NCBI GenBank assembly: GCA_963801935.1
Contig: CAWDHA010000011.1
Coordinates: forward strand, 25,923-89,922
Length of the DNA stretch: 64,000 nt
Source of the DNA: an uncultured delta proteobacterium
GTDB lineage: Bacteria > Desulfobacterota > Binatia > UBA9968
Direction of reading: 5' to 3'
Positions 4,806 to 62,792 of this stretch are shown here, piece after piece (the first letter of the stretch is position 1; each line of letters begins with the position of its first letter). The translations under genes and the position numbers were made by a program. The notes under the pieces are model-generated. The model saw only the letters and a list, made by a program, of their open reading frames with translations. It was not told the origin of the DNA and did no database searches.

Positions 4806-4890
4806 CCAGTTTCTAGTTTCTGGTTTCAAGTTTCTCGTTTTAATCCAGGCTTCTGTTTTCCTAGAACCAGAGACCTGAAACCAGAAACTG
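4806..4890. terminator. heptad-repeat palindromic hairpin (GTTTC units) between convergent genes
   Basis: cagtttctagtttctggtttcaagtttctcg ... agaaccagagacctgaaaccagaaactgaac. The arms are reverse complements. Lies between the CoA-transferase (+) and LLM oxidoreductase (-) 3' ends. Confidence 0.5.
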
Positions 4891-11065: not shown

Positions 11066-11230
11066 TAGCAGCCCGTGGTGAAAGTCTGACTGCATTCGGC
11101 GCGCGATCGATCCCGGCTGGCTGCGTTGCTCCTCCCCTCAAATATCCCCCGATGTTTGGGTCGTCGCGCCTTGCCATCACGGCGCCTCGCCCGTCTCGGT
11201 GCGACGCCACACTTTCACCACGGGCTGCAG
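11066..11230 (+). mobile_element. MITE-like 165-bp element, copy 1 (20-bp TIR CAGCCCGTGGTGAAAGT.../...ACTTTCACCACGGGCTG)
   Basis: ~90% identical to five other copies in the window, with terminal inverted repeats. Sits in the divergent promoter region between the FAD monooxygenase and the MFS gene. Confidence 0.6.
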
Positions 11231-15044: not shown

Positions 15045-15168
15045 GATAGTGCCTCATGACCGCTTAGCTTGAATGTCGGTTCTGAGCGGCACCCTGTGTG
15101 AAAACTCCGCGCGACTTAGACGATTCACCAAGAGCGGGAGAGAAATTACAAGCATTGGAGGAGCCATC

Positions 15169-15982: not shown

Positions 15983-16076
15983 AGTTCTAGTTTCCGGTTC
16001 TAATTCGAGGTTTCTGGTTTATGGAACCAGAAGCTCCTGGATCAAAACGAGAGACTGGAAACCAGAAACTAGAAAC
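15983..16076. terminator. heptad-repeat palindromic hairpin (GTTTC units) between convergent genes
   Basis: agttctagtttccggttc ... ggaaaccagaaactagaaact. Long imperfect stem. Confidence 0.5.
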
Positions 16077-16475
16077 TTAGACCTGGTCTTTCTTGGCGCC
16101 GGGTCCGGCGTAAATCTCCAGCTTGTTACCGTCGGGATCTAAAAAGTAGGCCTGCTTGCCCCAGAAAACTCCCTCGTTTCGATCTTCGATGTGAAAGACA
16201 TCCACGCCGTTCCTGCGCAGAAATTCGATCGACGGCTCGAAGTCTTCGGGTTTCACTTTGAAAGCATGATGCACCGGAGTTTCTTGCGCTGAGTCGAATT
16301 TCACCGGCGCCTCACCCTGCGCCATAATAAAATAATTCTCGCCGCTTTGCAGAAAAACCATCCGCGCCCTGCGCTCAATGATCTTCATACCCAGGATCTC
16401 GTGATAAAACTTGGCGCTGGGATCGAGATCGGTTGTCGGCAAGCTGAAGTGAAGGACCCCTTGAGTTTTGATCAT
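16077..16475 (-). CDS. VOC-family protein (glyoxalase/bleomycin-resistance/extradiol dioxygenase fold)
   Basis: 132 aa. ...HFSLPTTDLDPSAKFYHEILGMK... and ...YFLDPDGNKLEIY..., classic VOC motifs. Confidence 0.75.
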   Translation of the reverse strand: MIKTQGVLHFSLPTTDLDPSAKFYHEILGMKIIERRARMVFLQSGENYFIMAQGEAPVKFDSAQETPVHHAFKVKPEDFEPSIEFLRRNGVDVFHIEDRNEGVFWGKQAYFLDPDGNKLEIYAGPGAKKDQV

Positions 16476-37510: not shown

Positions 37511-37552
37511 GCAGCGGCGGGCTCGTTGCAGATTGTCGGGACTAGCAGCCCG

Positions 37553-37707
37553 GGGTGAAAGTGTGGCGTCGCACCGAGACGGGAGAGGCGCCTTGATGGC
37601 AAGGCGCGACGACCGAGGATATTGGGGAATATTTGAGGGGAGGAGCAACGCAGCGGACGGGGATCGATCGCCCGTCGAATGCAATCAGGCTTTCACACGG
37701 ACTGCTA
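37553..37707 (-). mobile_element. MITE-like 165-bp element, copy 2 (inverted orientation); its terminal CTAG supplies the dnaJ stop codon
   Basis: Reverse complement matches the family consensus. Overlaps the DnaJ stop at 37705-37707. Confidence 0.6.
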
Positions 37708-38826
37708 GAGCCGCACGTCTTTGCGCACGTCCTCGTTGTATGCCTGGTCGATTTTCTCGATCACATCGCGCTCGAGGTTTTGCCTGGGTATGCGGATCAT
37801 GAGACGCAGAAATAAATCTCCCGCGGTAGTTTGTCCATGCCCGGCGACTCCCTTGCTCTTGATGCGCAGTTGCTGGCCGCTTTGCGCGCCGGCTGGCACT
37901 TTGACTTTGATCGTACCGCTCGGCGTCGGCACTTCGACCTCAGCGCCGCTTATGGCTTCGCCAACCGTGATCGGCAGCTCCATCGTCAAATCTCTTCCCG
38001 AGCGCGTGAGCACGGGATGCGGCCGGATACGCGGCGTGATGTAAAGGTCGCCGGCTTCGCCGCCGCGAATCCCCGCTTCACCCTTGCCGCGCAGACGAAT
38101 CTGCTTAGCGGGATCGGCTCCGGGCGGAATATTGACGCGGATCGTGTCCGGTCGCATCAAGCGGCCGCGACCACCGCACCTGGCACAGCTCTCGCCGGGC
38201 CAATGCCCGGTCCCGGCACAGCGCGCGCAGGTTTGGCGAAAATGCAGCGACCGGTCAGCCGGCGCTTTAGTGCCGCTGCCATGGCACTCGGGACAAGTGC
38301 TCGGTGCCTTCTTAGCTTGGCCGCCGGCGCCGCCGCAGGTATCGCAGGCAACGAGCCGTTCCACTGTGAGCGAAGTCTGAAAGCCGCGCACGGCGTCGAG
38401 AAAATCGATGTCCATATTCGAGCGGATGTCTTGACCACGAATCGGGCCGTTTTGCGCTCGCGTGCCGCGGCCAAACATGCCGCCAAGACCGCCGAAAAAA
38501 TCGCTGAGATCATCCGGGCTGAATTCGTACGCGCCCCCTGAGCGCGCCGACTGCTGCCGGCCTTGCTGATAGCTCCGCGCCTGCTCCGCGTCAAAGCCGG
38601 CGGCGCAGCCGGCTGCGCCAAATTCATCGTAGAGCTTGCGCTTCTTTTCGTCGCCGAGGACATCGTAGGCAACCGACAGCTCCTTGAACTTGCTCTCGGC
38701 GTCTTTGTTTCCGGGATTGGTGTCAGGGTGGTACTTACGCGCGAGCTTGCGATAGGCTTTGCGGATTTCCTCGCGCCCGGCGCCGCGCTTTACGCCGAGG
38801 ATTTGATAATAATCTCGGTCTGCCAT
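37705..38826 (-). CDS. dnaJ: molecular chaperone DnaJ
   Basis: J-domain [33 protein letters not shown]-rich linker, and four CxxCxGxG zinc-finger repeats ([32 protein letters not shown]). Confidence 0.85.
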
Positions 38827-47380: not shown

Positions 47381-47546
47381 TAGCAGCCCGTGGTGAAAGT
47401 CTGACTGCATTCGACGGGCGATGCATCCCCGTTGGCTGCGTTGCTCCTCGCTCAAATATTCCCCGATATTCTCGGTCGTCGCGCCTTGCCATCAGGGCGC
47501 CTCGCCCGTCTCGGTGCGACGCCACACTTTCACCACGGGCTGCTAG
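47381..47546 (+). mobile_element. MITE-like 165-bp element, copy 3
   Basis: Full-length copy with intact 20-bp TIRs, flanked by GTAG/CTAG. Confidence 0.6.
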
Positions 47547-47669
47547 GCTCGTTTATTAATAGGCGGCGAATCGCTCCACTCGAATGACAAAAAGCAGCGA
47601 TTCGCCGCCTCTCGAGCGTAGTTATTTCGTTCCGCCCATGGTAGCCTGCGGCACGAAGGAGAAATAAAA

Positions 47670-47957
47670 ATGGCTGAGGCAGGTCGCAGATTATTCGCCG
47701 GGATCAGAATTTCGACGCAATTGCAAAATGATTTAAATAGTCCGGCTCCTGGGACGGAGCATTATTTCAAGCCTGACAACTCAGACTATCTCCACATAAT
47801 AACGCTGGGCGAGGAAAAGTTGATCGGTAGGTATCTGAAGGACGGCTTTCCGGCCGCGGATATGGATAATGTCAGCCGCAACGTCTGCAGCATCGTCAGG
47901 CTGATCGCACGGAGCCACCGCGTGGAAGAAAATCCAGTCCATATTTATGTTGCCTAA
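47670..47957 (+). CDS. hypothetical protein (95 aa)
   Basis: ORF with acceptable codon usage. Weak resemblance of RLFAGIRIS...YLHIITLGE to the first HxTL half of 2H phosphoesterases. Too short to be a complete LigT. Confidence 0.3.
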   Translation: MAEAGRRLFAGIRISTQLQNDLNSPAPGTEHYFKPDNSDYLHIITLGEEKLIGRYLKDGFPAADMDNVSRNVCSIVRLIARSHRVEENPVHIYVA

Positions 47958-48313
47958 GTGCCAACTTCGGTATCTATCATTTCGACCCTCCAGTTAAGCT
48001 CAGTGTCCTCTGAGAGACCTGCCCCTCGAGCGTAATCTGGAATAATTCAACTAGCTTTTTTTGTTGGTACGCACGCATGCTGCCGACTCCTGAGCGAAGA
48101 TGCTGCAGCCAACATCCTGGCTCAGGTATCTTTATGCTACTAATCTGTTATACTCTTTTGCATAAGCAGCTGCGGCCCAACGTCTAGAAATCCCCTCGGT
48201 CAAAATCTTCCCGAGTCTCGTAGAGGTGAATCCCAGGGGTGACCGCCTCTTCATTTATGGCCTAAGATCACTGGGAATCGCCAGGCCGGCTGCGAGCAGG
48301 AGATTCTCCTTTC

Positions 48314-50610
48314 ATGGAATACAGCCCGAGCCATTCCCGAATCAATCGCATCGCTTTCATCGGCAACTACCTGCCGCGCCAATGCGGCATCGCCACGTTC
48401 ACCACCGACTTGTGCGAAGCCATCGCCGCCGAGCACCGCGACACGACCTGCATCGCCGTGCCGGTCAACGATATCGAAGACGGCTACGCCTATCCCCAGC
48501 GTGTGCGCTTCGAGCTGACCGAGAAAGATCATCGAGTCCTATCGGCGCGCCGCCGATTTCTTGAATATCAACAGCGTCGATCTCGTGTGCCTGCAGTTCG
48601 AATACGGCATCTTCGGCGGCCGGGCGGGCAGCCATATCCTGGCGCTGCTGCGCGATCTGCGCATGCCCATCGTCACGACCCTGCACACGATTCTGCGCGA
48701 ACCCGACGCGCATCAGCGCCGGGTTTTGGAAGAAGTCGCCGGCGTTGTCGGATCGCCTGGTGGTCATGAGCAAGCGCGGCGCGGAATTTCTCGAGGAGAT
48801 TTATCACGTAGCGCCGGACGAAGATCGATCTGATTCCGCACGGCATTCCCGACATGCCTTTCGTCGATCCGAGTTTTCACAAAGACCTGTTCGGCGTCGA
48901 AGGCAAAATCGTCTTGCTCAGCTTCGGCTTGCTGTCGGCGAACAAGGGACATCGAGAATGTCATTGCCGCTCTGCCTGCGATCTTGGCCAAACATCCGAA
49001 CGTGGTGTACTTCATCGTCGGCGCGACTCATCCGCATGTCCTGCGGCACGACGGCGAAACCTATCGCTTGTCACTGCAGTGGCTGGCCCAAGAGAAAGGC
49101 GTCGAAGGTCAAGTGATCTTCTACAACCGATTTGTCAGTTTGGAAGAACTCGTTGAGTTCATCGGCGCCGCGGATATTTACATCACGCCTTATCTCAACC
49201 CGGCGCAGATCGTCTCGGGCACGCTGGCCTATACCGTGGGCGCCGGCAAGGCGGTTATTTCGACCCCCTATTGGTATGCCGAAGAGATGCTGGCCGACGA
49301 ACGCGGCGCGCTGGTGCCGTTTCGCGATCCGGCGGCGTTGGCCGAGCAAGTGATCGACTTGTTGGACAACGAGGCCAAGCGCCACGGCATGCGCAAGCGC
49401 GCCTATCTGTACGGCCGCGAGATGATCTGGCCGCAGGTCGCGCGTCGCTACATGGAGAGTTTTCAACGCGCCCGCGCCGAACGGCGCCACTTCACTCCTC
49501 CCGGTTTCGTGGTCAAAGCGCTCGATAAACGTCCGGCCGAATTGCCGCCGCTCGAAACTCGATCACTTACGCCGCATGACCGACGATACCGGCATGTTTC
49601 AGCACGCGATTTTCACCGTGCCCAACTATCACGAGGGTTACACCATCGACGACAATGCCCGCGCGCTGATCGTGAGCACGCTGTTGGAAGAACTGGGCAA
49701 TGAAGAGACCGCCGATCTAATCTCACGCTATTTCGCTTTCGTCTGGTATGCCTTCAATGCGAAGACCGGACGCTTTCGCAATTTCATGAACTACCAGCGC
49801 AACTGGCTGGAAGAGAGCGGCTCCGACGACAGCCACGGCCGCACCTTGTGGGCGCTGGGCACGGTGTTGGGCCGCTCCAACACGCCGGCGCTGCAGAGTA
49901 TGGCCGGCTGGGTATTCGAGAAAGCGTTGCCGGCGATTCTCGAGACGACCAGCCCACGGGCCTGGGCGTTCGCGCTGATCGGCATCGACGAGTATCTGCA
50001 GCGTTTTGCCGGTGACCGAAGAGTCACTCAGGCGCGCGAGGAATTGGCCGGGCGGCTGCTCGAGTTGTATCGCAAAAATCGAACCGATGAGTGGCACTGG
50101 TATGAAGAGTCGCTGACCTACTGCAACGCCGCGCTGCCGCACGCCTTGCTGATGTGCGGTCACGGCGATGCCCAACAACGACATGACCGAAGCCGGCCTG
50201 GAGTCGCTCCAATGGCTGGCCGATCTGCAGCGCGCTGACGACCAGCGGCGGTCATTTCGTGCCCATCGGCTCCAACGGTTTTTATCAGCGCGGCGGCGAG
50301 CGTGCGCGCTTCGATCAGCAGCCGGTGGAGGCTCAAGCCATGGTGTCGGCTTGCCTCGAAGCACATCGGATCACGGGAGATCAAGAGCTGGCACAAAGAA
50401 GCGCGGCGCGCCTTCGACTGGTTCCTCGGCCGCAACGATCTGAACCTGCCGATCTACGATCCGACGACCGGCGGTTGTCGCGACGGCTTGCATCCCGACC
50501 GCCCGAACGAAAATCAGGGCGCGGAGTCTTCCCTCGCCTTTCTCCAGGCGGTGCTCGAACTGCGTTTGGCTGAGACAACATTGGCATCCGTGGAAACAGG
50601 AGCTCGATGA
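48314..50610 (+). pseudogene. GT4 glycosyltransferase fused to an (alpha/alpha)6-type glycoside-hydrolase-like domain, fragmented over >=7 frames
   Basis: Pieces: 48314..48769 (IAFIGNYLPRQCGIATFT), 48561..48833, 48745..49116, 48984..49703 (GT-B C-terminal half ...FIGAADIYITPYLNPAQIVSGTLAYTVGAGKAVISTPYWYAEE...), 49576..50238, 50259..50573, 50302..50610. Read together they give one ~760-aa protein. Confidence 0.5.
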
Positions 50611-51600
50611 CCAACCAACATCACCGAACTTTTTCGCCGTCATAAAACCAATCCGATCTTGAGCGCGGCCGATTGGCCCTATCCGATCAATAGCGTTTTC
50701 AACCCCGGCGCCACGTTGCTTGCCGGATGGCACGACTCTGCTCTTGTGCCGCGTCGAGGATCGCCGCGGCCATTCTCACCTGACTGTCGCTCGTTCCGAC
50801 CAACGGCGTGGATAATTGGCAGATCGAATCTCGGCCAACGTTGCCGGCCGACCCGGAACATTTCCCGGAAGAATTATGGGGCATCGAAGATCCGCGCATT
50901 ACCTACGTCCCGGAATTGAGCAAGTATGCCGTCGTCTATACCGCTTTCACGCGCGACGGCCCGGGCGTGTCTCTGGCGCTCACTGAAGATTTTCACAACT
51001 TCGAGCGCTATGGCGTCATCATGCCGCCGGAAGATAAGGATGCGGCTTTGCTTCCCCGTCGTATTCAACGGGCAGTGGGCTTTGATCCATCGGCCCGTCA
51101 GCGCTCCGCGCGCGCACATGTGGATGTCTTACTCTCCGGACCTGCGCCACTGGGGCAATCACAAGCTGATGCTGGAAGCACGCCGCGGCGCATGGTGGGA
51201 TGCCAATAAAATCGGTCTCTCGCCGCCGCCCATCGAAACCCCGCAGGGGTGGCTGGTGATTTACCATGGCGTGCGCCATACCGCCGCGGGCTCGATTTAC
51301 CGATTGGGACTTGCTCTGTTTGATTTGCACGCGCCGGAGCATTGCTTGAAGCGCGGCGACGAGTGGATTTTCGGCCCGCAAGAAACCTACGAGCAGCGCG
51401 GCGACGTCGACAACGTGGTTTTTCCTTGCGGCTACACGATTGCGCCGGACGGCGACACCATTCACCTGTATTACGGCGCGGCGGATACGAGCATCGGCCT
51501 GGCGACAGGAAGCGTGCGCGCCATGCTCGAGTGGCTTGAGCCTGCATGGCAGGGAACCGGCAAGAAGTATCAACAATTAAGGAGGGTTTATGGCAGCTGA
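50607..51600 (+). pseudogene. GH130-family glycoside phosphorylase/hydrolase (DUF377 beta-propeller), 2-3 frameshifts
   Basis: ATGA overlap with the upstream gene. AGGAG RBS. WGIEDPRITYV (GH130 catalytic-Asp motif) and ...WLVIYHGV.... A shift at a GG run is near 50730. Confidence 0.55.
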
Positions 51601-51769
51601 GACATTTAAAAAACGCCAAAAAGAAGTCGCGCGGCGCGAAAAGCAACAGAAGAAATTTGCGCGCCGTTCGGAACGAAAGAACGAGAAGGCAAGGACAGAG
51701 AATAAACCTGAGGGGACCGATCCACAAACAGACGAGCTCGCTCTTCAACACGGCCCAACGATTCTTTAG
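51590..51769 (+). CDS. small (59 aa) highly basic protein, translationally coupled to the GH130 gene
   Basis: Strong SD AAGGAGGG 8 nt upstream. ATG overlaps the GH130 stop. MAAETFKKRQKEVARREKQQKKFARRSERKNEKARTENKPEG... The ORF-track alternative 51546..51908 is low-complexity and lacks an SD. Confidence 0.4.
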   Translation: MAAETFKKRQKEVARREKQQKKFARRSERKNEKARTENKPEGTDPQTDELALQHGPTIL

Positions 51770-51940
51770 TCCCGCAGGCCGGGGTACGGCCCCCTCGGAC
51801 CACTCACAATGGCTGCGGACTCATGGCATTTTTCAAGAGGCCGCGTTCTGGCTCCGGCAAAAACGAACTCCACGGGACGATAAAAATCGTCAAAATCGCT
51901 GGCAGTGAATGGCAATTGTGAATCGACAAAGGAGAATCGC

Positions 51941-52504
51941 ATGATACTGAACGCGGGGAAAAAGGTCGTCTATCCGAATCAAGGTCCCTGTCGCATCGGC
52001 GCCATAATCACAAAAGATATCGCCGGTCGGCCGGCCGCTTTTTATCCCTTAGCAGTCTTGGACGAGAGCGGTAACGTGTTATTTGTCCCCGTGGACAAGA
52101 CCGACAACCTGGGAATCCGCCAGCTAGTGAAAAAATCGCAAATTCCCAAGCTATTACGCCTGCTCAGCCAGGAAGTCGAAATTGCCAATTCACCAAACAC
52201 CCGTATGAATTGGAAGCAGCGTGCTATCGATAACACCAAGCTGTTGGCTTCAGGGTCGGCATTTGATCTCGCGACCATCGTCGGCTCGTTGAGCGAGTTA
52301 AACGAGATTAAGGCGCTGTCGCCGCGCGACCGCGAGGTCTTGGACAAGGCAAGAAAGATCTTGATCTGTGAGATTTCCGAGGTACTGGGGCAGAGCAAAA
52401 TTGCCGCTGAGAAAAAGATAGACGATTCTCTAAAAACTGGCAAAACGACCACGACGAGTTCAGCGAGCGCCGGCAGCAATTTCTCGCGCATCAGCGACGC
52501 CTGA
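51941..52504 (+). CDS. cdnL: CarD/CdnL-family RNA-polymerase-binding transcription factor
   Basis: RBS GGAG. N-terminal Tudor-like RID GKKVVYPNQGPCRIGAII...LFVPVDKTDNLGIRQL. C-terminal helical domain ...NWKQRAIDNTKLLASGSAFDLATIVGSL...REVLDKARKILICEI. Confidence 0.7.
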   Translation: MILNAGKKVVYPNQGPCRIGAIITKDIAGRPAAFYPLAVLDESGNVLFVPVDKTDNLGIRQLVKKSQIPKLLRLLSQEVEIANSPNTRMNWKQRAIDNTKLLASGSAFDLATIVGSLSELNEIKALSPRDREVLDKARKILICEISEVLGQSKIAAEKKIDDSLKTGKTTTTSSASAGSNFSRISDA

Positions 52505-52714
52505 AGAATTGCCTATGACATTCGCGCGCGTTGCGCACTGATTCGTTGGCTCGGCGATGGGTCCCCTGACAACCGCTTCAACCGATGAGGCCGGCGATTG
52601 TGCCCTGCGCAGGGCCATGGAATGGATCGATCAAAATTGAAAGATCCACGTCAAGGCAACCTTGATCGCTGCTCATGCGCTTGCCGGAACAGCGCATGCG
52701 ACCGCACTCGATAA

Positions 52715-52837
52715 TTATTTCAGGCCAAACGAAAACACTTTGCCCTCTTTCTTGGCTTTTTTCGCGGCCCTTTTTTCCATCAAGTTTTTCAGTGGCTTTT
52801 TTTTGGTTTGTTTTTTACTGTCCTGACCTTTACTCAT
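52715..52837 (-). CDS. possible 40-aa lysine-rich micro-protein
   Basis: MSKGQDSKKQTKKKPLKNLMEKRAAKKAKKEGKVFSFGLK. Weak SD AAGGA. Below the ORF-track cutoff. Confidence 0.2.
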   Translation of the reverse strand: MSKGQDSKKQTKKKPLKNLMEKRAAKKAKKEGKVFSFGLK

Positions 52838-52945
52838 GTTAGCTTTCCTTTTGGTTCTCGGTTGATCTTTGTCCTGTCGAGACACCCGGCAACTTGCCGG
52901 AGCTTCGCCGCGTCAGGCACTGAAACTGCTGCCGGTGCGCAATTA

Positions 52946-53293
52946 TTACGCTTTGTCAGTCAGCTGCTTGGCGCACGCATCGGCAACTCTACTATCGGGT
53001 TTATCTTCACCCGGCATGATCGCCCAACGCTGCGTTTCAATATAACGGCCTTTGTCCCAGGAATCTTTTTGCTTCATCTCGCTGAGCTTCTGACCCTTCT
53101 GGGAATCCGAGTTAAACTGCGCGACACAAATCGATCCCAACCGGGTGGTGACCGCATCTGCGGCGCTTTCCTTAGCCATTGCCGCTGCGGCGCCGCCGGT
53201 AACCCAACCGCCCCAGTTGAATCCGACTACAGCCAGCAGAATTGCGCCGCCGGCAGCACTCCACGAACCCAGCTTGATTTTTTCCATATCCAT
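52946..53293 (-). CDS. hypothetical small membrane-anchored protein
   Basis: GGAGG RBS. N-terminal TM helix GGAILLAVVGFNWGGWVTGGAAAA followed by a hydrophilic domain. Confidence 0.45.
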   Translation of the reverse strand: MDMEKIKLGSWSAAGGAILLAVVGFNWGGWVTGGAAAAMAKESAADAVTTRLGSICVAQFNSDSQKGQKLSEMKQKDSWDKGRYIETQRWAIMPGEDKPDSRVADACAKQLTDKA

Positions 53294-53535
53294 AAAACGC
53301 CTCCATTGAACACGTTTTTTGCAACCGCGACAATATTACCTGTGCAGGTTCGATGTCATGCTGCGCTGAAGTAACCCCGATTGCTGTCTAAAATTGAACA
53401 GTCTTGAGACTATTATTGTCTGCTCATCAAGTGGCGTGATAGTTCTGTATCAAATAGTGCAATACTAGACAGCGCAGCTATCTAGATAGCCTGCTAATAA
53501 TCATTAAAAAGTGAGTAGACACGGAGGAGGGAGCG

Positions 53536-55225
53536 GTGCTTCTCAATTACACCCCGGTTTCGTTGGCCTTTGGCACCAGCGGTTTGCGCGGCTTGGTCAA
53601 AGATATCACTGACCTTGAAGCATATATCAATGTCAAAGCGGCTCTCTGTTATTTCCTGCGGAGCGGCGCCATGGGCGGGCGCGGCGGCGTTATCATCGCC
53701 GGCGACCTGCGGCCAAGCACCGATCGCATCATGCGCGCCTGCGCCCAGGCGATCGGCGACTCGGCATTACAGGTCGAAAACGCCGGCAAAATCCCCACCC
53801 CGGCGTTGATTGCTCACGCCATGTCTAGCGGGCGCGCCGGCGTGATGGTCAGCGGCAGCCATATTCCCTTTGATCGCAACGGTATCAAGCTCAACAAGAG
53901 CGCCGGCGAAGTCCTGAAAGAGGAGGAACCGGGCATCATGCGCGAGGTCGAGCGAGTACGCGCCGAGGAGTACGGCAAGAATGAAGCTGACTCGCTGTTC
54001 GATCTCTGCGGCATGCTCAAGCGTCCACCGGAACTGCCGCCGCTTAATCGCGGCGCTGAAAAATCATACATCGAGCGCTATTTGACGAGCTTCAGCCGGG
54101 GCGGCCTCTCGGGCGTGCGTGTTCTTGTCTATCAACACTCGGCCGTCGGCCGGGACATCTTATCGGATATTCTACGCGAGCTTGGCGCCGATGTGGTCAG
54201 CGCCGGGCGCAGTGAGACGTTCGTTCCGATCGATACTGAGAACATTACCGACGAGCAGCTGGATCGACTTGAAGAATTAGCCGTCGACGCCGAAGCCGGC
54301 GGCCGGCCGCTGGACGCAATCGTGTCCACCGACGGTGACTCCGATCGGCCCCTGGTAACGGCACTGCTGCGTGCCGCCGAGGTCCAGCCGGGCATGCGGC
54401 GCGTGCGCTTTTTACCCGGCGACCTGCTCGGCATCGCCGTCGCCGAATATCTGCGCGCCGACGGCGCCGCGGTTCCAATCAGTGCCAACGATGCCGTCGA
54501 GCGACGCCTGCGCCAGCGTGGCATTTATCTCGATAAGACTAAAATCGGCTCGCCTTACGTTGTCGCCGCTCTGGAGGAGCTGCGCCGTGCCGGGACGCAC
54601 GCACGCATCGTCGGCTGGGAAGCCAACGGTGGGTTCTTGACCGGCAGCGATATCGCTCTCTCTGCGGGGCCTTTGCGCGCGCTACCGACGCGCGACGCTA
54701 CGTTGCCGATCCTGGCGAACTTGTTCGCTGCGGCCGAGCAGCGCAGCGGATTGGCGGCATTGTGGGACCGACTGCCGGCTCGCTATGGTCGCGCCGGCTT
54801 GCTCGATAACGTGCCGGTCGGCGTAAGTCAGGCCATCCTCTCTCATCTGATTCCAGCCGGCGAGACAACCGAGGTTGCGTTCGACGCCACAACCGGAGGC
54901 GTGTTCGACCCGAACCGGGCGGCCACGATGCCTACCTTGCTCGCCGAACCGGCGGCCAGAGAATGGCAGCGCTTGAGAGCGAGCTTAAGCGATTTCTTTA
55001 GCGCCGCGCTCGGATTCGATGGCGATCGCGCGAATCAATGTACTCGACGGCGTGCGCGTCTATTTTCACAACGGCGACGTCGCCCATGTCCGGCCGTCGG
55101 GGAACGCGCCGCAACTGCGCATCTACGCCAACAGCGATTCCCAAGCGCGCGCCGATCGCATCGTCGAGTTTGCGCTCCGCGAACCCGACGGCATTCTGCG
55201 TCAACTGGAGCGCGCTTTCACCTAG
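53536..55225 (+). CDS. alpha-D-phosphohexomutase (phosphomannomutase/phosphoglucomutase), one frameshift near 55020
   Basis: GTG start with GGAGGAGGG RBS. Active-site loop SGSHIPFDRNG. Mg loop STDGDSDRP. C-terminus ...IARINVLDGVRVYFHNGDVAHVRPSGNAPQLRIY... is recovered in a +1 frame. Stop TAG is provided by the adjacent MITE copy. Confidence 0.75.
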
Positions 55226-55387
55226 CAGCCCGTGGTGAAAGTCTGACTGCATTCGACTTGTGATCGATCCCCGTTGGCTGCGTTGCTCCTCCGCTCAAAT
55301 ATTCTCCGATATTCTCGGTCGTCGCGCCTTGCCATCAGGGCGCCTCGCCCGTCTCGGTGCGACGCCACACTTTCACCACGGCTGCTA
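55223..55387 (+). mobile_element. MITE-like 165-bp element, copy 4 (CTAG...CTAG flanks)
   Basis: Full-length. Its first TAG is the pgm stop codon. Confidence 0.6.
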
Positions 55388-55450
55388 GCTGGCGGCGACG
55401 ACATTTTTCGAGCATCGATATTTTCATTGGCACCGGATAAAGAGCCGTCA

Positions 55451-55990
55451 TCACAAGGATTTCTTTTCGGCCAGTGCGGCAATGGCGTCCAGGAGAGTTA
55501 ACAGGCGCACCGGTTTGACTAGATGAAGGTCAAAACCTGCTTCACGTGTGCGTTCGCGGTCCTCATCCCGGCCCCATCCGGTCAGGGCGACAATGATCAT
55601 CCTTTCTCCCCAGGGCTGTTCGCGCATGCGGCGGCAGGCGTCGTAACCGTTGAGTTTCGGCATGCCAAGATCGAGCAACACCACGTCGGGGAGAAATCTT
55701 TCCGCGGTCAGCACTGCAGCTTCTCCATCGTGCGCTAGCTGAACGGCGCTTCCTTTCAGCCGAAACAACGTTGCCAACATCTCCGCAGCGGCGCGATTAT
55801 CGTCGACCACCAGAACTCTCAATTCTTCGACGATAAGCCGGTGCGCCGAGCCGGTAAATGTTCTCATGGATTGCGCGGCCGGCGGTTGCTCGGGCAGCGG
55901 CAAGCGGATCGTAAACTCACGCCTTTGCCGCCTTCTTCACTTTTTGTTTTGACATTGCCTTTCAATAGATCGTCAACAAGTCGGCCCATA
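55451..55990 (-). pseudogene. remnant of a hybrid sensor histidine kinase (last ~30 aa of HATPase_c + complete REC domain)
   Basis: RLVDDLLKGNVKTKSEEGGKGSEFTIRLPLP matches the HATPase_c C-terminus (...[28 protein letters not shown]) after a 1-nt shift. Then receiver VLVVDDN...VLLDLGMPKLNGYD...VALTGW. No DHp or sensor domain lies upstream. Confidence 0.5.
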
Positions 55991-56386
55991 GGCCGAGTTT
56001 CCTCAACGCAACACCGCGGTCGGTCGGATTGCGGGATTCGACAAACGGCTCGGCAGCAGAGTTATGGCGGCAATCGATCGTAGGTGAGACAACAGCCTCA
56101 CGATCCCTAATCGTTGGCACCAAAAGCACGAACTCTATGCTTCGGCGCCGTTCAAGGAGATCGAGCTAGCTGCGATCGTCCGAAGTTGCTTGAGCGTAGT
56201 CTAACGCGCGCGTATGTTAGCGCAGAATCGAAATGGCAGGATTACACCGGTCGAGATCACAGGTCAAGGACCGATGGCCTCGGACAGGTTATTTCCAGTT
56301 TATTTTTGTGTTCCAAGCTTATGATTGGGAAATCGGCAGAACTGACAGCGACTGATAATTTGCTCTTGTAAAGATAGCGCTGATGA

Positions 56387-58124
56387 TTACACGCGCTCTG
56401 CCTGGCCATCGCTATCGACAACCACTCCATAATCCGCCAGCGCGCTTGCGCGCGACACGACGCCGCGGATCACATCGCGGGCGACGAGTTTCACCGGACG
56501 TCTTTTTGGATCGCCGTAGCCGCCGCCGCCGCCGGTAGACATGCGCACCCGGTCGCCGGCTTGCAACGGGCAACCTTCAGTCTTGTAAATGAGCTGGGGT
56601 TTAGACTTTCCCTGCTTAAAGATCAGCACCTCGCCCGATTTACCGGAGCCGCCGCCCTGCACCCCCCAAGGCGGGCAACCGACGCGATCGAAGTTCGCCC
56701 AGAGCTCGCACGGCGCAAGCAGGGCGTACTGCTTCTCGAATCCCAATCCGCCACGCCACTCTCCAGGCCCGCCGGAATCTCGGCGCAAGCCGAATTCTTC
56801 GATCGCGCAATGGATACATCGATTCTTGCAACTCGATGGGAATCAATCGTGTGTCACCGTGCGCCATCGTGCGAAACGGACCGGCGCCATCATGAGTCGC
56901 GCACGCGCCCCAGCCGCCATGGCCGCTGTCGTTGGCTTTAAACAACGCGCCGGTGTCCATGCGTTTACCGGCAAAGCTCAGCGAGGAAAAAGTTCCGAAA
57001 TGGGCGCCGGTCACACGCTTGGGCAGCGCCGGCTCCAGCGCCTTGATGATGCAGTCGATGACCGTCGGAAAAGGAATGCTATAGAGCCCCATGGGCGCCG
57101 TGGCTTCGGCGCTCAGCAATTTGCCTTGGGGCAGAATCATCTTCAGCGGCCGAAACGTCCCTTCATTGGCCGGCTCGTCAGTGGCAATCAGATATTTAAA
57201 CGCCACCCGCGCCGTGGTGCGGCCGCCGCCGTAAAAACCTGAGTTGATGCAGCCGCGCACCTGCGCCGACATCTCAGAATAGTCGATGGTCATCTCGTCG
57301 CCAATGACGCGGACTTTCACCTTGATGGGGATCTTTTCGTCGCGTATGCCATCGTTGTCGAGAAACGCTTCATATCCATAGACCCCGTCCGCGATGGCGG
57401 CGATCTTCTCGCGCGTGGCGGCTTCGCACTGGTCGAGAATCGCCGCCAGCGCGCCGAGAAATATCTCGCTGCCGTACTTATCCGCCATCGCCTGCGTCAA
57501 ATCGCGGCCGAGCAGCGTGCCGCCCAGCTGCGCCTCAATGTCGCCCATGAGCTCCAGCACAAAACGCGTGTTATTCTCGATGATGCGATACACTTCTTGG
57601 TTCGGCTCTCCTTTGGACCAGAGCTTGATCGAGCGCAGTTGCAAACCTTCCATGAAAATATCCGTGGAGGAATAAGATACCGAACCGATGGCCGAGCCGC
57701 CGATGTCGATCCAGTGGCAGTTGACGGCAAAAAAGCCGATCAAATCAGCGCCGTTAAAGCCGGCGAACACCGGGGTATACATGACGGTGTTATTCAAGTG
57801 TTGGCCCTGCACCGCGGCGTGGTTGCAGACGATGACGTCGCCCTTGTGAATGTTTTTGCGACCGTATACTTCCAAGCCGTCGCGCACCGCCATACCGACC
57901 GAGTCGGCGACGAATACCGGCATGCCGCCGGTGGACTGCGCCAGTAATTCGCCTGCCGCGCCGACAAAGCCGACGGCGTAATCCTTATATTCATAGATGT
58001 AAGGGCTGAACGCCGTGCGCGTCATATTGGCGTCAATTTGATCGCAGATCGAAATGATGCCGTAACGGATGACTTCCAGAGTTATCGGATCGATGGTCGG
58101 TTTCGCTGAGCGGGGCGCAATCAT
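56387..58124 (-). CDS. hydantoinase B / 5-oxoprolinase (HyuB) family protein, one frameshift near 56800
   Basis: ...DPITLEVIRYGIISICDQ..., ...GGWGACATHDG..., ...GGGGGYGDP.... C-terminal 133 aa are in ORF 56387..56788. Confidence 0.7.
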
Positions 58125-58287
58125 TCTGGCAATCCTTCGTTGGGATCAGGCGCGATAGTTTCAAGGAAACAAAATGTTGTCAAGCAAGCTCGTTTGGAGT
58201 AAGTAGTCTCACCAGTGAGCGCCGCTAAGGATAGAAATGAGCTGTAGGGGCGCGATTCATCGCGCTTTCACACTTGGAGTTAGATTT

Positions 58288-59289
58288 ATGATCAGACCCG
58301 ATAGCCGTCTGAGTCTGCTTTTCTTGGCGGCGGGCTGTTTGTCTCTTGCCCTGGCGATTTCGGAAGCCGCGCAAGCCCAGGAGGGACGCGCCAAGTTAAG
58401 AATCTCCAACGCCGGTTTCACGATCACCGCGTTGCCGCTGTTGGCCGCCAAAGAGTGGGGTATGTTCAGCGCCAACGGCCTCGACATGGAAGTCATCCTC
58501 ATGCAATCGGCGCTGGTGCCGGCGGCGCTCACTCAAGGCGACATCGATTTTCAAGCAGGGGTGGGCCCGGCCTCAGTCAACGCGACCTTGAGCGGATTTG
58601 CCACCCGGGCCATCTGGTTTTCGTCCGACAAGATTTCTTACTGGCTGATGGCAAAGCCGCAATTTAAAACCCTCGACAGCCTGAAATCGAAGAAGATCTC
58701 GATCACCGGACTTGGTGGCACGGTTCATGTCGCGTTTAATCTGGCGCTCGAGAAACTCGGTGTCAGTGCCAAGGACTTTGTTCTGGTATCGATCGGCGGG
58801 CAACAGATACAACAGCTGATCTCACTGGAGTCGGGATATGTCGATGCCGCGCTGCTCTCTCCGCCGGTGACCTTCGGCGCCCAGAAAAAGGGATTTAACA
58901 AGCTGCTCGACGTCGGCGCGATGGTTGACATGCCCGGCGGCGGCTTGACCGCGCTGGTGAAAACGATTCAAGAACGACCGGCGGAAACCAAGCGGGTGAT
59001 TCGTTCGTTGCAGCGCGCTAAAGACGAGATTAAAAAATCCAAGCCCAAGACCCTGGACCTTATCGTCAAGCTACTCAGGATGGACAGGGAAGCGGCGAGC
59101 GAAACCTACGATCAGTTTCTGACGACTCTCAGCGGGAGCGGTATCCCCAGCCGCACCGGCATGGAAACACTGGTCAGATCGGTGCAGGCCCAAGGCCGCC
59201 ACGCCGACCGCAAAGTGAGCTTTCATGAAATTGCCGACGACCGGCTGGCGATGGAAGTGGCCAGAGAGTTGGGTTATAAGATTCCGTAA
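58288..59289 (+). CDS. NMT1/THI5-like ABC substrate-binding protein (paralog), orphan
   Basis: Signal peptide LLFLAAGCLSLALAISEAAQA. ...LKSKKISITGLGGTVHVAF.... Confidence 0.7.
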   Translation: MIRPDSRLSLLFLAAGCLSLALAISEAAQAQEGRAKLRISNAGFTITALPLLAAKEWGMFSANGLDMEVILMQSALVPAALTQGDIDFQAGVGPASVNATLSGFATRAIWFSSDKISYWLMAKPQFKTLDSLKSKKISITGLGGTVHVAFNLALEKLGVSAKDFVLVSIGGQQIQQLISLESGYVDAALLSPPVTFGAQKKGFNKLLDVGAMVDMPGGGLTALVKTIQERPAETKRVIRSLQRAKDEIKKSKPKTLDLIVKLLRMDREAASETYDQFLTTLSGSGIPSRTGMETLVRSVQAQGRHADRKVSFHEIADDRLAMEVARELGYKIP

Positions 59290-59568
59290 GGTGTTGCTAT
59301 AAATTAAGCTTTTTCGATGAACGCATTTGAATCGATGGTGCTGGGCGGCGCTTTTTTGACGAGGGCCGGGGCGACGTCGCGGTGGCCAACGAGTTAGCGC
59401 GCTCCGCTGATCCGACAGGCGCCACCTTGATCTTCGATCACGAATCCTGGGAAGCTCAGAAAGACAGCCTTGTTCGAGTCCTCTAAAATATTCCCGCGCC
59501 CAACCCTGGCTCAGCGACAATGATCGAGGAGCGCCATCTTCCATCCGCTATCCGCACTCGACCAACGC

Positions 59569-60564
59569 CTATGCGCCGTCGGTATCTTCCCGGTAAAGCC
59601 CCAATGCTTCCGTCGATGGCCGATCGCTGATTGAAAACAAGATCGCGTCCTCGCTGCTCAGGTTTTCGTGGCAGTGCCATTGCCACGAGGGCACGACAAA
59701 GATATCGCCCTTTGCCCAGTTGAATTCGTTGGCTGAGACTCTGGTCGTGCCGCCACCGCGGAAAGCGTAATAGACCGTCGTGCTCGTATGACGGTGCATC
59801 TTGGTTTTTTCGTGAGACCGAAACAGTTGAATGGAGCAAGAGCAGGTCGGTAAGGTATGGCCGCCGTCGACCGGATTGGCATATTCCAAGATGATCCCAT
59901 CGTACGGATCGCCGGCGCTCTCTTTAAGCGCCTGCAGGCTCGCGTCGGTTTCCTCCCAGGCATAGCGGTAAGGCGGCGCCTGAAAAGAATTCTTGATATA
60001 ACTGGGACGCGCGTGGGCGAAAACTTTCGCCGAATAGCGGTCCGGCTTTTCGATGGGCTGCTGCTCTTTATTGAAATTCTCCTGGATCATCGCGCCCAGG
60101 TGGCTCACCAGCCGAACATCGAGCCCGTCGAGCCACATGACGGGCTCGCCCGAGCCGTTAAAATGGTCGTGCCAGGTCCAGTTGGGCGTGGTGATGAAAT
60201 CGCCCTCGAACATCGGAAAGCGTTCACCTTCAACGATCGTATAGGCATTGGCCGTGCCTTTGACGATAAAGCGAACCGCGGCGGCGCTGTGCCGGTGCGC
60301 CGCCGCGATCTCGCCGGGCTTGACCAATTGCACCGAGATATGCACGGTATTGGTCATGCCGGCGGCGAGACCCGGATTTCTCATCTGGATCGTGCGCCGT
60401 CCTGCCTCACCTGTGGTGATCAAGTCTCCCGACCAATTGAGCGCCTGCAGGATTTCGTCGCCCTTCCAAAGCCAGGGCTTGACCGTTTGCGACCATTCCT
60501 GGTGCTCCCAGTGGCCTTTAAGGTTTCGCTCTTTCATCCATTGACTGAGCTCTTGCAGATCCAT
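59569..60564 (-). CDS. bicupin ring-cleavage dioxygenase (gentisate 1,2-dioxygenase-like)
   Basis: GGAGG RBS. First cupin AAHRHSAAAVRFIVKGTANAYTIVEGERFPMFEGDFITTPNWTWHDH. Second cupin with HRHTSTT...WHCHEN. Confidence 0.65.
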   Translation of the reverse strand: MDLQELSQWMKERNLKGHWEHQEWSQTVKPWLWKGDEILQALNWSGDLITTGEAGRRTIQMRNPGLAAGMTNTVHISVQLVKPGEIAAAHRHSAAAVRFIVKGTANAYTIVEGERFPMFEGDFITTPNWTWHDHFNGSGEPVMWLDGLDVRLVSHLGAMIQENFNKEQQPIEKPDRYSAKVFAHARPSYIKNSFQAPPYRYAWEETDASLQALKESAGDPYDGIILEYANPVDGGHTLPTCSCSIQLFRSHEKTKMHRHTSTTVYYAFRGGGTTRVSANEFNWAKGDIFVVPSWQWHCHENLSSEDAILFSISDRPSTEALGLYREDTDGA

Positions 60565-60680
60565 GATAGCCTCCAGTTTCAAGCGCTTAGAAGGTTGCGG
60601 TTGAGATTTGAATACAAACGACTAATCGCACTATCGACAGGCAAGTTTCAAGCAGGGCAATGTCAAAGTCATTTGCACCT

Positions 60681-60844
60681 TAGCAGCCCGTGGTGAAAGT
60701 CTGACTGCATTCGACGGGCGATCGATCCCCGTTGGCCGCGTTGCTCCTCGTTCAAATATTCCCGATATTTCTCGGTCGTCGCCTTGCCATCGGGGCGCCT
60801 CGCCCGTCTCGGTGCGACGCCACACTTTCACCACAGGCTGTTAG
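60681..60844 (+). mobile_element. MITE-like 165-bp element, copy 5 (TTAG...TTAG flanks)
   Basis: Full-length. Identical TTAG on both sides, consistent with a 4-bp target-site duplication. Confidence 0.6.
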
Positions 60845-60870
60845 GCATTTGAATGCTCACGTTTTTCCGA

Positions 60871-60930
60871 AAATCCCCCCTTCCCCGCTTTTTCAATGGG
60901 GGGTATTGGCAGTCTCCCTTTGAAAGGGAG
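60871..60930. repeat. paired GC hairpins (CCCCCCTTCCCCGC...GGGGGG / CTCCCTTTGAAAGGGAG), 3' of Bug gene
   Basis: Same motif family as 8569-8641. Confidence 0.5.
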
Positions 60931-60948
60931 GTTTAGAGGGATTTCTCA

Positions 60949-61977
60949 TTATTCCATTACTTTCTTCATCGACGCGATAACGTCGGCCGGCTGCGACATC
61001 ACCTCCCTCGCCAGTTCTTCGATTTCTTCTCCGGGAATCAACTCGGGCTCGAGGCCATGTTTTTTCGCCTCGGCGATGAGCTCGGGACTGGCCAGCGCCT
61101 TGGCGTAGGCGGCGCGCAAAATCTTGACATGATCGGCTGCTATGCCCGGGGGCCCGAACATCGGCGCGCTGCCGAACTCTCCCGAACCCAGCATGACCGT
61201 TACGAGCCGGCGATCTGCTTCGGCAGTCTTATATTGATCCATCAATTCACTGAAGAGCGGCGTATCCGATAAACGCGGGTCGCGTTTCTTGCCGCCTTGA
61301 ACCAAAACCCGCACCAGGTTCTTAGTGCGCCAGGTATGAAACGGCTCGCGGCCGAAAAAGACCTGAATGGTGAAAGCGCGGCATTGAACTTCACCGCGCT
61401 CGACCGCCAGTTCGATATCGGCGCCGCCCTGATAACCGGTCACCAGTTGAAACCTGGCGCCGATGGCTTGTTCCAGGAGCTTGGGCAAATAGTAGCCGGT
61501 ATTGCCCGTGCCGGTAACACCGCACTTGGGCGGAACCGTCGCCGTGCGCACGTCGTGAATGGTTCTGTACGGCGTATTGGCCCACATATAGAGCAGCGGC
61601 GCAGTCGGCGTCGTGCTGCCGACCCAGGTGAGTTTGGGCCACTCGAACTGCGCTTCTTTTTTCTTGAGGAGTTGTTCGAAATAGAGCGCCGCGTTGTTCA
61701 CACCGAGAGTCAAGCCATCCGGTTTCGCAACGCCATAGATATAATTCGTCGCCGTCATCGAGCCGGCGCCGGCCATGATCTGCACCACGGTAGCCGGATT
61801 ACCTGGAATATGCCTGGTTAGTTGCGGCGCAATCATGCGAGCCCACAAATCGTGGGCGCTGCCCGCTGGATAGCCGACAACCACTCTGATTGTTTTTCCC
61901 TGATAGTAAGGTGACTGCGCACCGGCACTCGAACAAATAAACGTTAGACCGAACAGCCACAAACCGCTTCGCTTCAT
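60949..61977 (-). CDS. Bug-family (TctC-like) substrate-binding protein, orphan
   Basis: GGAGG RBS. Signal peptide WLFGLTFICSSAGA. GKTIRVVVGYPAGSAHDLWARMIAPQL. Confidence 0.8.
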   Translation of the reverse strand: MKRSGLWLFGLTFICSSAGAQSPYYQGKTIRVVVGYPAGSAHDLWARMIAPQLTRHIPGNPATVVQIMAGAGSMTATNYIYGVAKPDGLTLGVNNAALYFEQLLKKKEAQFEWPKLTWVGSTTPTAPLLYMWANTPYRTIHDVRTATVPPKCGVTGTGNTGYYLPKLLEQAIGARFQLVTGYQGGADIELAVERGEVQCRAFTIQVFFGREPFHTWRTKNLVRVLVQGGKKRDPRLSDTPLFSELMDQYKTAEADRRLVTVMLGSGEFGSAPMFGPPGIAADHVKILRAAYAKALASPELIAEAKKHGLEPELIPGEEIEELAREVMSQPADVIASMKKVME

Positions 61978-62000
61978 AGCCATCCTCCGATTTTGCGCGG

Positions 62001-62528
62001 CTAGGAACCGGCCGCGCGCTTGCCAGCAGCGGCGGCGATCTGGGCATTGATCTCGCCGCCGATGTACATGATGAGACCCATGAGGTACAACCACAGCATC
62101 AGGACGATCACAGCGCCGATACTGCCATACGTGGCATTGTAACTCGGAGAGTAACGGATATAAGTAGAGAAGGATAAGAGGCGAGTATAAAAGTCGTTAC
62201 GGCAAACAGTGCGCCGGGCAGGATCCAGCTCCATCTTTGCTTGACGAAAACCGCGGCTGCGGTTGGCAAAAACGTTCTGCACCCAGGTTTCCACGATCCG
62301 GCTTGCATCGGCAGGCATGAGCCGCGATAGCCAGAACAGAATTATCTCCTGAACCCGCGGCATAAGACTAACCAGGTTCAGCAGAACAATGAGCAGCGGG
62401 AACAAAGCCAACTGAAAGTAGAAGGCAAGCTCGGCAGCCCTGCCAAGATAATCGTGTTTACGAATTCCCCGCCAGGTCTTAACGGCCAGCTGCTTGAGCG
62501 TAAGCCCTTCCAGGATGGCGGACTTCAC
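62001..62528 (-). CDS. YihY/BrkB-family membrane protein, internally frameshifted or truncated
   Basis: AAELAFYFQLALFPLLIVLL (YihY N-terminal motif) and C-terminal GSIGAVIVLMLWLYLMGLIMYIGGEINA. The middle segment lies in frame 62108..62308. Confidence 0.5.
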   Translation of the reverse strand: MKSAILEGLTLKQLAVKTWRGIRKHDYLGRAAELAFYFQLALFPLLIVLLNLVSLMPRVQEIILFWLSRLMPADASRIVETWVQNVFANRSRGFRQAKMELDPARRTVCRNDFYTRLLSFSTYIRYSPSYNATYGSIGAVIVLMLWLYLMGLIMYIGGEINAQIAAAAGKRAAGS

Positions 62529-62634
62529 AGCGATAACCCGCCCTCAGAAGTCTGCAAACTGGCACTGCCCGATGGTTTTCATCTCTTGGAAATAACAGCA
62601 GTCCGTAAGCTGTCGCAAAATAGCTAGCAGCCCG

Positions 62635-62792
62635 TGGTGAAAGTCTGACGACATTCGACGGGCGATCGATGCCCGTTGGCTGTGTTGCTCCTCCGCTCAA
62701 ATATTCCGCGATATTCTAAGGTCGTCGCGCCTTGCCATCAGGGCGCCTCGCCCGTCTCGGTGCGATGCCACACTTTCACCATGGACTGCTAG
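62635..62792 (+). mobile_element. MITE-like 165-bp element, copy 6 (CTAG...CTAG flanks)
   Basis: Full-length with a few substitutions. Confidence 0.6.

Follow-up and report, generated by a model that had tools for sequence, protein, structure and literature searches.

IS870 is a member of the IS630 family and duplicates a TA dinucleotide upon insertion. Insertion sequences (ISs) of the IS5 group, as described in ISfinder and by Mahillon and Chandler, duplicate a 4-bp target with the consensus YTAR. A TAG stop codon taken by the transposase ORF from a CTAG insertion target has been reported for both IS870 and ISMt1, in a paper that cites Fournier et al. 1993 for the observation (PMC13630536). 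Here, we describe a non-coding element of approximately 160 bp that occurs six times in a 64-kb stretch of DNA (contig CAWDHA010000011.1; the whole stretch analysed is referred to below as the window), the best named relatives of which are 'Candidatus Binatia' metagenome-assembled genomes (MAGs). We consider it very likely that this element is a non-autonomous MITE (miniature inverted-repeat transposable element) that duplicates a 4-bp YTAR target and is able to sit on the stop codon of a gene without altering the encoded protein.

Six copies of the element in the window

A repeat search of the window, together with an nhmmer scan using an alignment of the family, showed that the element, which is 157-161 bp long, occurs exactly six times, with pairwise identities between copies of 86-95%. 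The 5′ end of all six copies is CAGCCCGTGGTGAAAGT... and the 3′ end is its reverse complement. The copies, with their flanks given in the orientation of the element, are as follows:

11069-11227, plus strand: copy 1; flanks ATAG / CAGT, the right flank decayed; between divergently oriented open reading frames (ORFs)
37546-37704, minus strand: copy 2; flanks CTAG (37705-37708) and CTAG (37542-37545); between convergent genes
47384-47542, plus strand: copy 3; flanks GTAG / CTAG; intergenic
55226-55384, plus strand: copy 4; ends CAGCCCGTGGTGAAAGTCTG ... CACTTTCACCACGG-CTG; the whole copy folds as a long imperfect hairpin
55222-55225: left target-site duplication of copy 4, CTAG; TAG at 55223-55225 is the stop codon of a phosphomannomutase gene
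55385-55388: right target-site duplication of copy 4, CTAG
60684-60840, plus strand: copy 5; flanks TTAG (60680-60683) and TTAG (60841-60844); intergenic
62628-62788, plus strand: copy 6; flanks CTAG (62624-62627) and CTAG (62789-62792); intergenic

The tetramers flanking all six copies are exactly those given in a preliminary description of this DNA, which had also placed copy 4 at 55223-55387, correct to within 1-3 nt; the G+C content of the window, which that description had taken to exceed 60%, measures 57.3%. The density of copies is high and uneven, with four of the six lying in the final 16 kb (47384-62788) and five of the six on the plus strand.

Length and consensus of the target-site duplication

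The six window copies alone were not decisive as to the length of the duplication, because the CTAG palindrome prolongs the inverted repeat of the element. Furthermore, at a CTAG target, a 4-bp duplication and an IS630-type duplication of TA yield the same sequence, and we therefore collected the wider family by scanning one genome per species and by scanning metagenomes with the end sequence. The genome scan gave five copies, in two Acidobacteria MAGs, and the metagenome scan gave at least 120 loci (given L numbers below), mostly from soil. Flank statistics were then calculated for 60 elements with both flanks, comprising those of the window and others on contigs of soil genomes and metagenomes.

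Identical tetramers were found on both sides in 29 of the 60 elements; 10,000 permutations gave a mean of 8.4 and never more than 20. The identical pairs were CTAG (12), TTAA (5), TTAG (3), CTAA (2), CTAT (2), GTAG (2), CCAG (1), CAAG (1) and TTTA (1). The outer positions of the tetramer are the informative ones: the base at position 4 on the left is variable across the 60 elements (G in 38, A in 20 and T in 2), as is the base at position 1 on the right, and left and right nevertheless match at positions 1 and 4 in 44 and 49 of the 60 elements, respectively, where 26.9 and 28.6 were expected, a degree of matching reached in 0 of 20,000 shuffles. The target logo is SSS-YTAR-SSS, with G+C-rich bases around the tetramer, and the order of preference is CTAG, then TTAA, then TTAG and CTAA. 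We conclude that the flanking tetramer is a real 4-bp direct target-site duplication with the consensus YTAR. Duplications of TA only (IS630-like) or of 3 bp (YTA) had been plausible from the window copies and the first five genome copies, and are ruled out by the 60 elements. The duplication had been described previously as 4 bp of YTAG; the length is upheld (29/60 versus 8.4), and the restriction to YTAG gives way to YTAR.

A partner insertion sequence with the same ends

Pairing of end matches in the fetched metagenome loci identified approximately 14 complete IS copies of 1.39-1.51 kb that lie between the same terminal inverted repeats as the MITE, the ends being identical over 20-24 bp. 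These copies are flanked by YTAR, with identical tetramers in 6 of 12 copies, and encode a protein of 471-495 aa (typically about 479 aa) that contains the DUF772, DDE_Tnp_1 and DDE_Tnp_1_6 domains. The transposase gene is carried by approximately 20 loci. Its product scores 27.1 and 36.4 bits against PF01609 (DDE_Tnp_1; cut-off, 23), and the best NCBIfam model is that of IS1182 (NF033551), with 171.4 and 181.5 bits, which do not pass the curated cut-off of 270; the IS5 models of NCBIfam, with cut-offs of 110-275, are not passed either, the highest score being 90.7 bits. Because the transposase passes none of these curated IS family models, we place it in the IS5/IS1182 superfamily with no established family membership. 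The earlier suggestion of an IS5-type target agrees with these data, in that the partner IS, which shares the ends and the duplication of the MITE, encodes a transposase of the DUF772 + DDE_Tnp_1 type.

The transposase family is abundant: a homology search returned at least 8000 candidates at E <= 1e-40, one match being named Terracidiphilus. Its closest annotated relatives, which are 49-52% identical over approximately 90% of the length, are located on plasmids, in ISs with the ends CAGCCCGTTGACGAA... and with the flanks GTAG/GTAG (Rhodovastum atsumiense) and CTAA/CTAG (Sphingobium indicum). We also considered the MITE as a simple internal-deletion derivative of the IS and rejected this origin, as only the terminal 20-26 bp are in common.

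The transposase ORF lacks a stop codon of its own. At the right end of the IS, the frame reads ...ACC ACG GGC TG/Y TAR (the slash marks the boundary), which translates as ...T T G C stop; both the third position of the Cys codon and the stop come from the duplicated target. Because either Y yields Cys and either R yields a stop, YTAR always gives the same protein end. A TTGC end at the IS boundary, followed by TAR within the duplication, occurs in at least 8 complete IS copies belonging to several lineages that are 53-79% identical; examples of copies with a target-supplied stop are L028:8915-10431 and those in L018, L022, L061, L063, L101 and L104. C-termini encoded by the terminal inverted repeat were found in 101 of 120 database homologues, the modal length of which is 479 aa, and comprised TTGC (57), ATGC (13), TTGS (13), TTDC (9), TPGC (5), TTAC (2), ATDC (1) and ATAC (1).

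Two host genes end on the duplicated target

In the window, the duplicated tetramer overlaps the stop codons of two host genes. The features concerned are as follows:

37705-38826, minus strand: dnaJ (373 aa); the TAG stop at 37705-37707 is the TAG of the CTAG adjoining copy 2
37524-37544, minus strand: relic of a MerR_2 (HspR-like) gene, 18/21 nt; directly after copy 2
53536-55225, plus strand: phosphomannomutase/phosphoglucomutase gene; +1 nt frameshift near 55022-55030; native ...ERAFT* on the duplicated CTAG

The window DnaJ ends ...RKDVRL, as in element-free homologues; all of the best 120 DnaJ homologues end ...RL, and KDVRL is the commonest ending (55/120). Similarly, the conserved C-terminal domain of the phosphomannomutase (...ILRQLERAFT*) is encoded in the frame that terminates at the TAG at 55223-55225, and ERAFT is the commonest ending among the best 120 homologues of this protein (33/120). 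An element-free relative, L128 (80% identical), likewise ends ...ERAFT*, encoded by ACG TAG (ACC TAG in the window), and relatives at approximately 80% protein identity have no element after either dnaJ or the phosphomannomutase gene. We conclude that both host protein ends are native and, to judge from the aligned gene ends, that the tetramer spanning the phosphomannomutase stop was the target of insertion. The preliminary description had reported that the element overlaps the TAG stops of both genes and donates them. The overlap is real; the donation is not, because element-free homologues end at the same residues.

The phosphomannomutase frame is interrupted approximately 200 nt upstream of the native stop by a frameshift of one extra base (GGCGATCGCG, versus GACATCGCG in relatives), which is either the mark of a real pseudogene or an assembly error. 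The uninterrupted ORF (53536-55263) enters the MITE by 38 nt and stops at TGA (55261-55263), and the public gene call P0121 (575 aa) likewise extends into the MITE.

The dnaJ site has a more complex history. In the relatives L126 and L127, dnaJ is followed by a 97-aa MerR_2 (HspR-like) gene that has been deleted in the window, where only the relic listed above survives. This deletion is probably linked to the element, and could have resulted from recombination involving two copies or from an adjacent deletion mediated by the transposase. Within 37511-37545, the relic lies 13 nt from the stop codon of the convergent SBP gene.

Site availability accounts for the copies on stop codons

How might copies of the element have come to lie on stop codons? 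We counted the YTAR sites of the window that lie outside the elements (10 further YTAR sites lie in the terminal and target-duplication zones of the elements), using a rough gene map of 64 ORFs that covers 82% of the window. Of 341 YTAR sites, 211 are in coding sequences, as are 20 of 51 CTAG sites. The remaining classes are as follows:

Intergenic sites: 113 YTAR, 24 CTAG
Unoccupied stop-codon sites: 16 YTAR, 7 CTAG
Stop-codon sites occupied by the element: 2 YTAR, 2 CTAG

CTAG occurs 58 times in the window, compared with 239 occurrences expected from base composition, and chance falls far short of producing the observed flanks. It had been supposed that TAG-containing tetramers are rare inside genes; in absolute numbers they are not (211/341 and 20/51, as above), although their density there is lower, by approximately 5-fold for CTAG.

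A stop codon in a YTAR context terminates 18 of the 64 ORFs, and stop codons make up 13% of the non-disruptive YTAR sites and 24% of the non-disruptive CTAG sites. Two of the six window copies are on stop codons. On the metagenome contigs, an ORF of at least 80 codons ends exactly on the duplicated stop in 15 of 56 elements, and at least 8 of these 15 ORFs are Pfam-confirmed genes, which include those for an FtsX permease, a PemK toxin, an ankyrin protein, an AAA_14/DUF4143 protein, an fn3/Ig protein, a DUF192 protein and a zincin. In L011, L015, L102, L122 and L097, the long ORFs that end on duplicated stops resemble antisense ORFs that arise artefactually in G+C-rich DNA; these were left uncounted. 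Copies on stop codons showed no bias of orientation relative to the gene (approximately 7 versus 5). The concentration of copies on stop codons is fully explained by the availability of targets and the loss of gene-disrupting insertions. The proposal that the element would be funnelled to stop codons and intergenic DNA is therefore correct in qualitative terms, in that copies are intergenic or on stops, and requires no special attraction to stops, because 2/6 fits an availability of 13-24%.

Structure and variants of the element

The element has terminal inverted repeats of 17-21 bp, within complementary arms that reach approximately 39 bp (approximately 39 columns, with 98% of cells paired), and the whole element forms one long hairpin with arms of approximately 75 bp. 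The fold energies of the two strands are -72 and -81 kcal/mol (z = -5.6 and -6.8). In a 50-pair model of 37 copies, 96.4% of cells are paired, a value that falls to 38-47% once the partners are slid relative to each other. Compensatory changes occur in six pairs among the 37 copies, of which 47:117 (CG/UA), 51:113 (GC/CG/UA) and, within the window lineage, 79:86 (CG/UA) are the clearest. Alignment columns have a mean identity of 91%, including when copies from Binatia-like contigs are compared with those from Acidobacteria. The conservation of the hairpin may reflect recent horizontal spread, a structural need in transposition or a role at the RNA level. No match to Rfam 15 was found, in the window at the gathering threshold or in 55150-55460 at E <= 1, and consensus scans within the element found no promoter, no terminator and no U-tract.

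The element has several of the features by which MITEs are recognised: it is short, non-coding and present in multiple copies, it has terminal inverted repeats and a fixed 4-bp duplication, and there is, in metagenomes, an autonomous element with matching ends and a matching duplication. The same ends, together with perfect duplications, also border differing interiors, for example in variants of 194-318 bp, as expected of a transposase that recognises the ends and moves whatever lies between them. The smallest variant, L070:1971-2024, is a mini-element of 54 bp that consists of little beyond two MITE ends, with a perfect CTAT/CTAT duplication; from this element, the ends alone appear to be sufficient for movement. 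Longer variants (L030:5331-5559, L054:207-524, L100:57-253 and L003:7069-7349) contain one to four nested palindromes of approximately 37 nt (GGGGTCCCCAACGCGGCAGCCGCGTTGGGG...); these belong to a second, very small repeat of the REP-like kind, for which the MITE is an insertion site. Three further elements of 118-158 bp (L087:4247-4404, L116:335-476 and L123:5280-5397) have the common ends and unrelated interiors, and there are therefore at least two or three MITE families with the ends of the same transposase.

One locus, L019:501-2623, deserves separate mention. Its 2.1-kb stretch between two ends was first a candidate for an autonomous element, and is actually a MITE copy with a group II intron of approximately 1.97 kb in its central loop. 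The intron begins with GTGCG near position 590, contains a reverse transcriptase/maturase ORF with a YADD motif (1071-2393), matches the Rfam families RF02003 (614-741) and RF00029 (2403-2554), and is bounded by ...GAGTATTTG and AGCGAGGAGCAACGC. From this single instance, the MITE may serve as a homing site for group II introns.

Other repeats in the window

Two other repeats were observed. A 42-nt inverted repeat pair (4808-4849 and 16036-16077), 93% complementary and 11 kb apart, is made of GTTTCNN heptads (AGTTTCTAGTTTCTGGTTTCAAGTTTCTCGTTTTAATCCAGG) and is unrelated to the MITE; both of its arms sit just past a gene end. A 300-nt direct repeat with 83% identity (14322-14621 and 15250-15549) lies inside the adjacent ORFs 14226-15044 and 15073-15969, which are probably tandem paralogues.

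Discussion

How might these insertions have arisen? We propose that a DDE transposase of the IS5/IS1182 superfamily, supplied by the IS of 1.46-1.51 kb with the same ends, would move the MITE in trans. The enzyme would cut YTAR with a 4-bp stagger, with a preference for CTAG and for G+C-rich bases on either side, and repair of the gaps would duplicate the tetramer. Because YTAR contains TAG or TAA on either strand, a target is present wherever a gene ends in Y-TAG or Y-TAA. At such a target, the gene-proximal tetramer would stay in place after insertion, and the stop codon and the native C-terminus would be kept. Selection would presumably act as a filter, removing insertions inside genes, so that the survivors accumulate in intergenic DNA and on stop codons.

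Several observations weigh against this interpretation. No transposase gene lies within the 64-kb window, the partner IS was found in metagenomes, and the identity between MITE and IS is confined to their terminal 20-26 bp. Perfect duplications are present in only about half of the elements, and the imperfect pairs would have to be explained by mutation, by recombination among copies or by metagenome assemblies that are chimeric across repeats. Among the relatives compared, there is no exact empty site, as the closest are approximately 80% identical and their intergenic DNA is not alignable with that of the window; synteny downstream of the phosphomannomutase gene is lost in the relatives. At dnaJ, two relatives end in CTG TAA, where the window has CTC TAG, and the ancestral target tetramer therefore cannot be reconstructed; in addition, the two flanks of copy 2 are approximately 65 bp apart in relatives, so that this site has been rearranged by deletion and does not represent a clean insertion.

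We considered several other explanations of the tetramers. If the element were a MITE of the IS630/Tc1-mariner type that, like IS630 and IS870, inserts into CTAG with a duplication of TA alone, the inverted repeats would include the outer G...C. At CTAG targets, this arrangement produces the same sequence as a 4-bp duplication, window copies 1 and 3 (ATAG.. and GTAG/CTAG) and L001 fit it on their own, and the use of CTAG by IS870 and ISMt1, with the stop codon taken from it, offers a precedent (PMC13630536). We nevertheless regard it as highly improbable, because the outer positions vary and yet match across the two sides (TTAA/TTAA, CTAA/CTAA, CTAT/CTAT, GTAG/GTAG and TTTA/TTTA), and because the Pfam and NCBIfam matches of the partner transposase are to DUF772, DDE_Tnp_1, IS1182 and IS5 only, with none of the IS630 type. 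A related possibility is that no duplication is made, TAG and CTA being simply the terminal bases of a palindromic repeat (a REP-like or IS200/IS605-type repeat, or the gene of a structured RNA), and that the overlaps with stop codons are coincidental. The continuation of the inverted repeat into the CTAG palindrome and the stable hairpin (z = -5.6 and -6.8) with its compensatory changes would suit such a repeat. However, the tetramers vary, and co-vary as direct rather than inverted repeats, identical ends border a transposase-encoding IS, both gene ends are free of the element in relatives, and there is no Rfam match at the thresholds given above, all of which makes this possibility extremely improbable.

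The remaining alternatives concern the positions of the copies. A transposase that actively seeks stop codons or gene ends beyond its recognition of YTAR, for example through coupling to transcription or translation, might be suggested by the copies that lie exactly on gene stops (two of six in the window and at least 8-15 of 56 elsewhere); because the availability among non-disruptive sites already predicts 13-24%, and the majority of copies are in plain intergenic DNA, we consider it very unlikely. Compatible with the transposition model proposed above is the idea that the MITE is kept at gene ends as a co-opted, mobile 3′-end module, serving as a terminator between convergent genes or as a stabiliser of mRNA. 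Convergent genes flank both copy 2 and copy 4, the hairpin is well preserved (96% of cells paired in 37 copies, six compensatory pairs and 91% mean column identity), and other bacterial MITEs, such as the Correia elements, act at the RNA level (PMC2229807). On the other hand, the element contains no U-tract or terminator-like match, the copies on stop codons are unbiased in orientation (approximately 7 versus 5) and are as frequent as availability predicts, and the conservation is also explained by recent spread, with some of the co-variation being one lineage event counted repeatedly; such a role is therefore doubtful. A broader version of this idea would regard the YTAR rule as an adaptive sharing of stop codons, in which the IS has given up its own stop and obtains the correct ...TTGC-stop transposase only when inserted into YTAR, the MITE docks harmlessly on host stop codons and the hairpin is kept as a mobile 3′-end module between convergent genes, with the MITE spread across Binatota and Acidobacteriota and used as a landing pad by the group II intron and the nested ~37-nt palindromes. 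We regard this scenario, too, as unlikely.

The very likely explanation remains a YTAR-duplicating MITE moved by the partner transposase, and this locus then provides a quantified example of how the target rule of a transposon determines where it can persist. Essential genes, dnaJ among them, can accommodate a YTAR-duplicating element at their stop codons without cost to the encoded protein. For annotation, ORFs that end at such repeats need care, as the phosphomannomutase gene call that runs into the element illustrates. In addition, the analysis identifies, in soil Acidobacteria and Binatia-like bacteria, an IS/MITE pair that is both abundant and uncharacterised.

Among known systems, the IS5 group of the IS5 family (e.g., IS5 of Escherichia coli) resembles the partner IS in its DDE_Tnp_1 (PF01609) transposase, its 4-bp YTAR duplication and its length of approximately 1.2-1.5 kb. 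The partner transposase differs in its length of approximately 479 aa, its N-terminal DUF772 and its scores of 88.8-90.7 bits against a cut-off of 140; the ends of the partner IS (CAGCCCGTGG...) also differ, and its stop codon lies in the target. The IS1182 family gives the best NCBIfam score (171-181 bits) and shares the combination of DUF772 and DDE_Tnp_1_6, a protein of approximately 480 aa and an IS length of approximately 1.5 kb, but the partner transposase remains under the curated cut-off of 270 bits and its membership is not established. To our knowledge, the IS1182 family is not defined by a uniform duplication of 4 bp of YTAR, and we found no direct match in the literature for an IS1182 target rule or for a described YTAR MITE. 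The ISs on plasmid RHOApa of Rhodovastum atsumiense (NZ_OW485602.1) and plasmid pCHQ1 of Sphingobium indicum (NC_014007.1), with the ends CAGCCCGTTGACGAAATCG / CAGGCCGTTGACGAAGTCGG, are annotated merely as 'transposase' or 'IS5 family transposase'; they differ from the partner IS in that the ORF stops approximately 38 nt before the IS end at its own TGA, and their hosts are Alphaproteobacteria.

The MITE itself may be compared with Correia/NEMIS, RUP, ERIC and YPAL, which are likewise non-coding, shorter than 200 bp and multi-copy, with terminal inverted repeats, target duplications, mostly intergenic positions and hairpin transcripts (PMC2229807). Whereas these elements are mostly A+T-rich with TA ends, the element described here is G+C-rich and duplicates 4 bp of YTAR, and its hosts, in contrast to those of the classical bacterial MITEs, are soil Binatia-like and Acidobacteria genomes. 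Finally, compared with IS870 of Agrobacterium vitis and ISMt1 of Mycobacterium tuberculosis, the partner IS has a transposase of another family, a duplication of 4 bp and a broader target, YTAR. Given the precedent of IS870 and ISMt1, the stop codon supplied by the target represents no new principle but a further case, found in another lineage of transposases; it extends the IS870-type arrangement to an IS5/IS1182-like lineage and leaves existing concepts in place.

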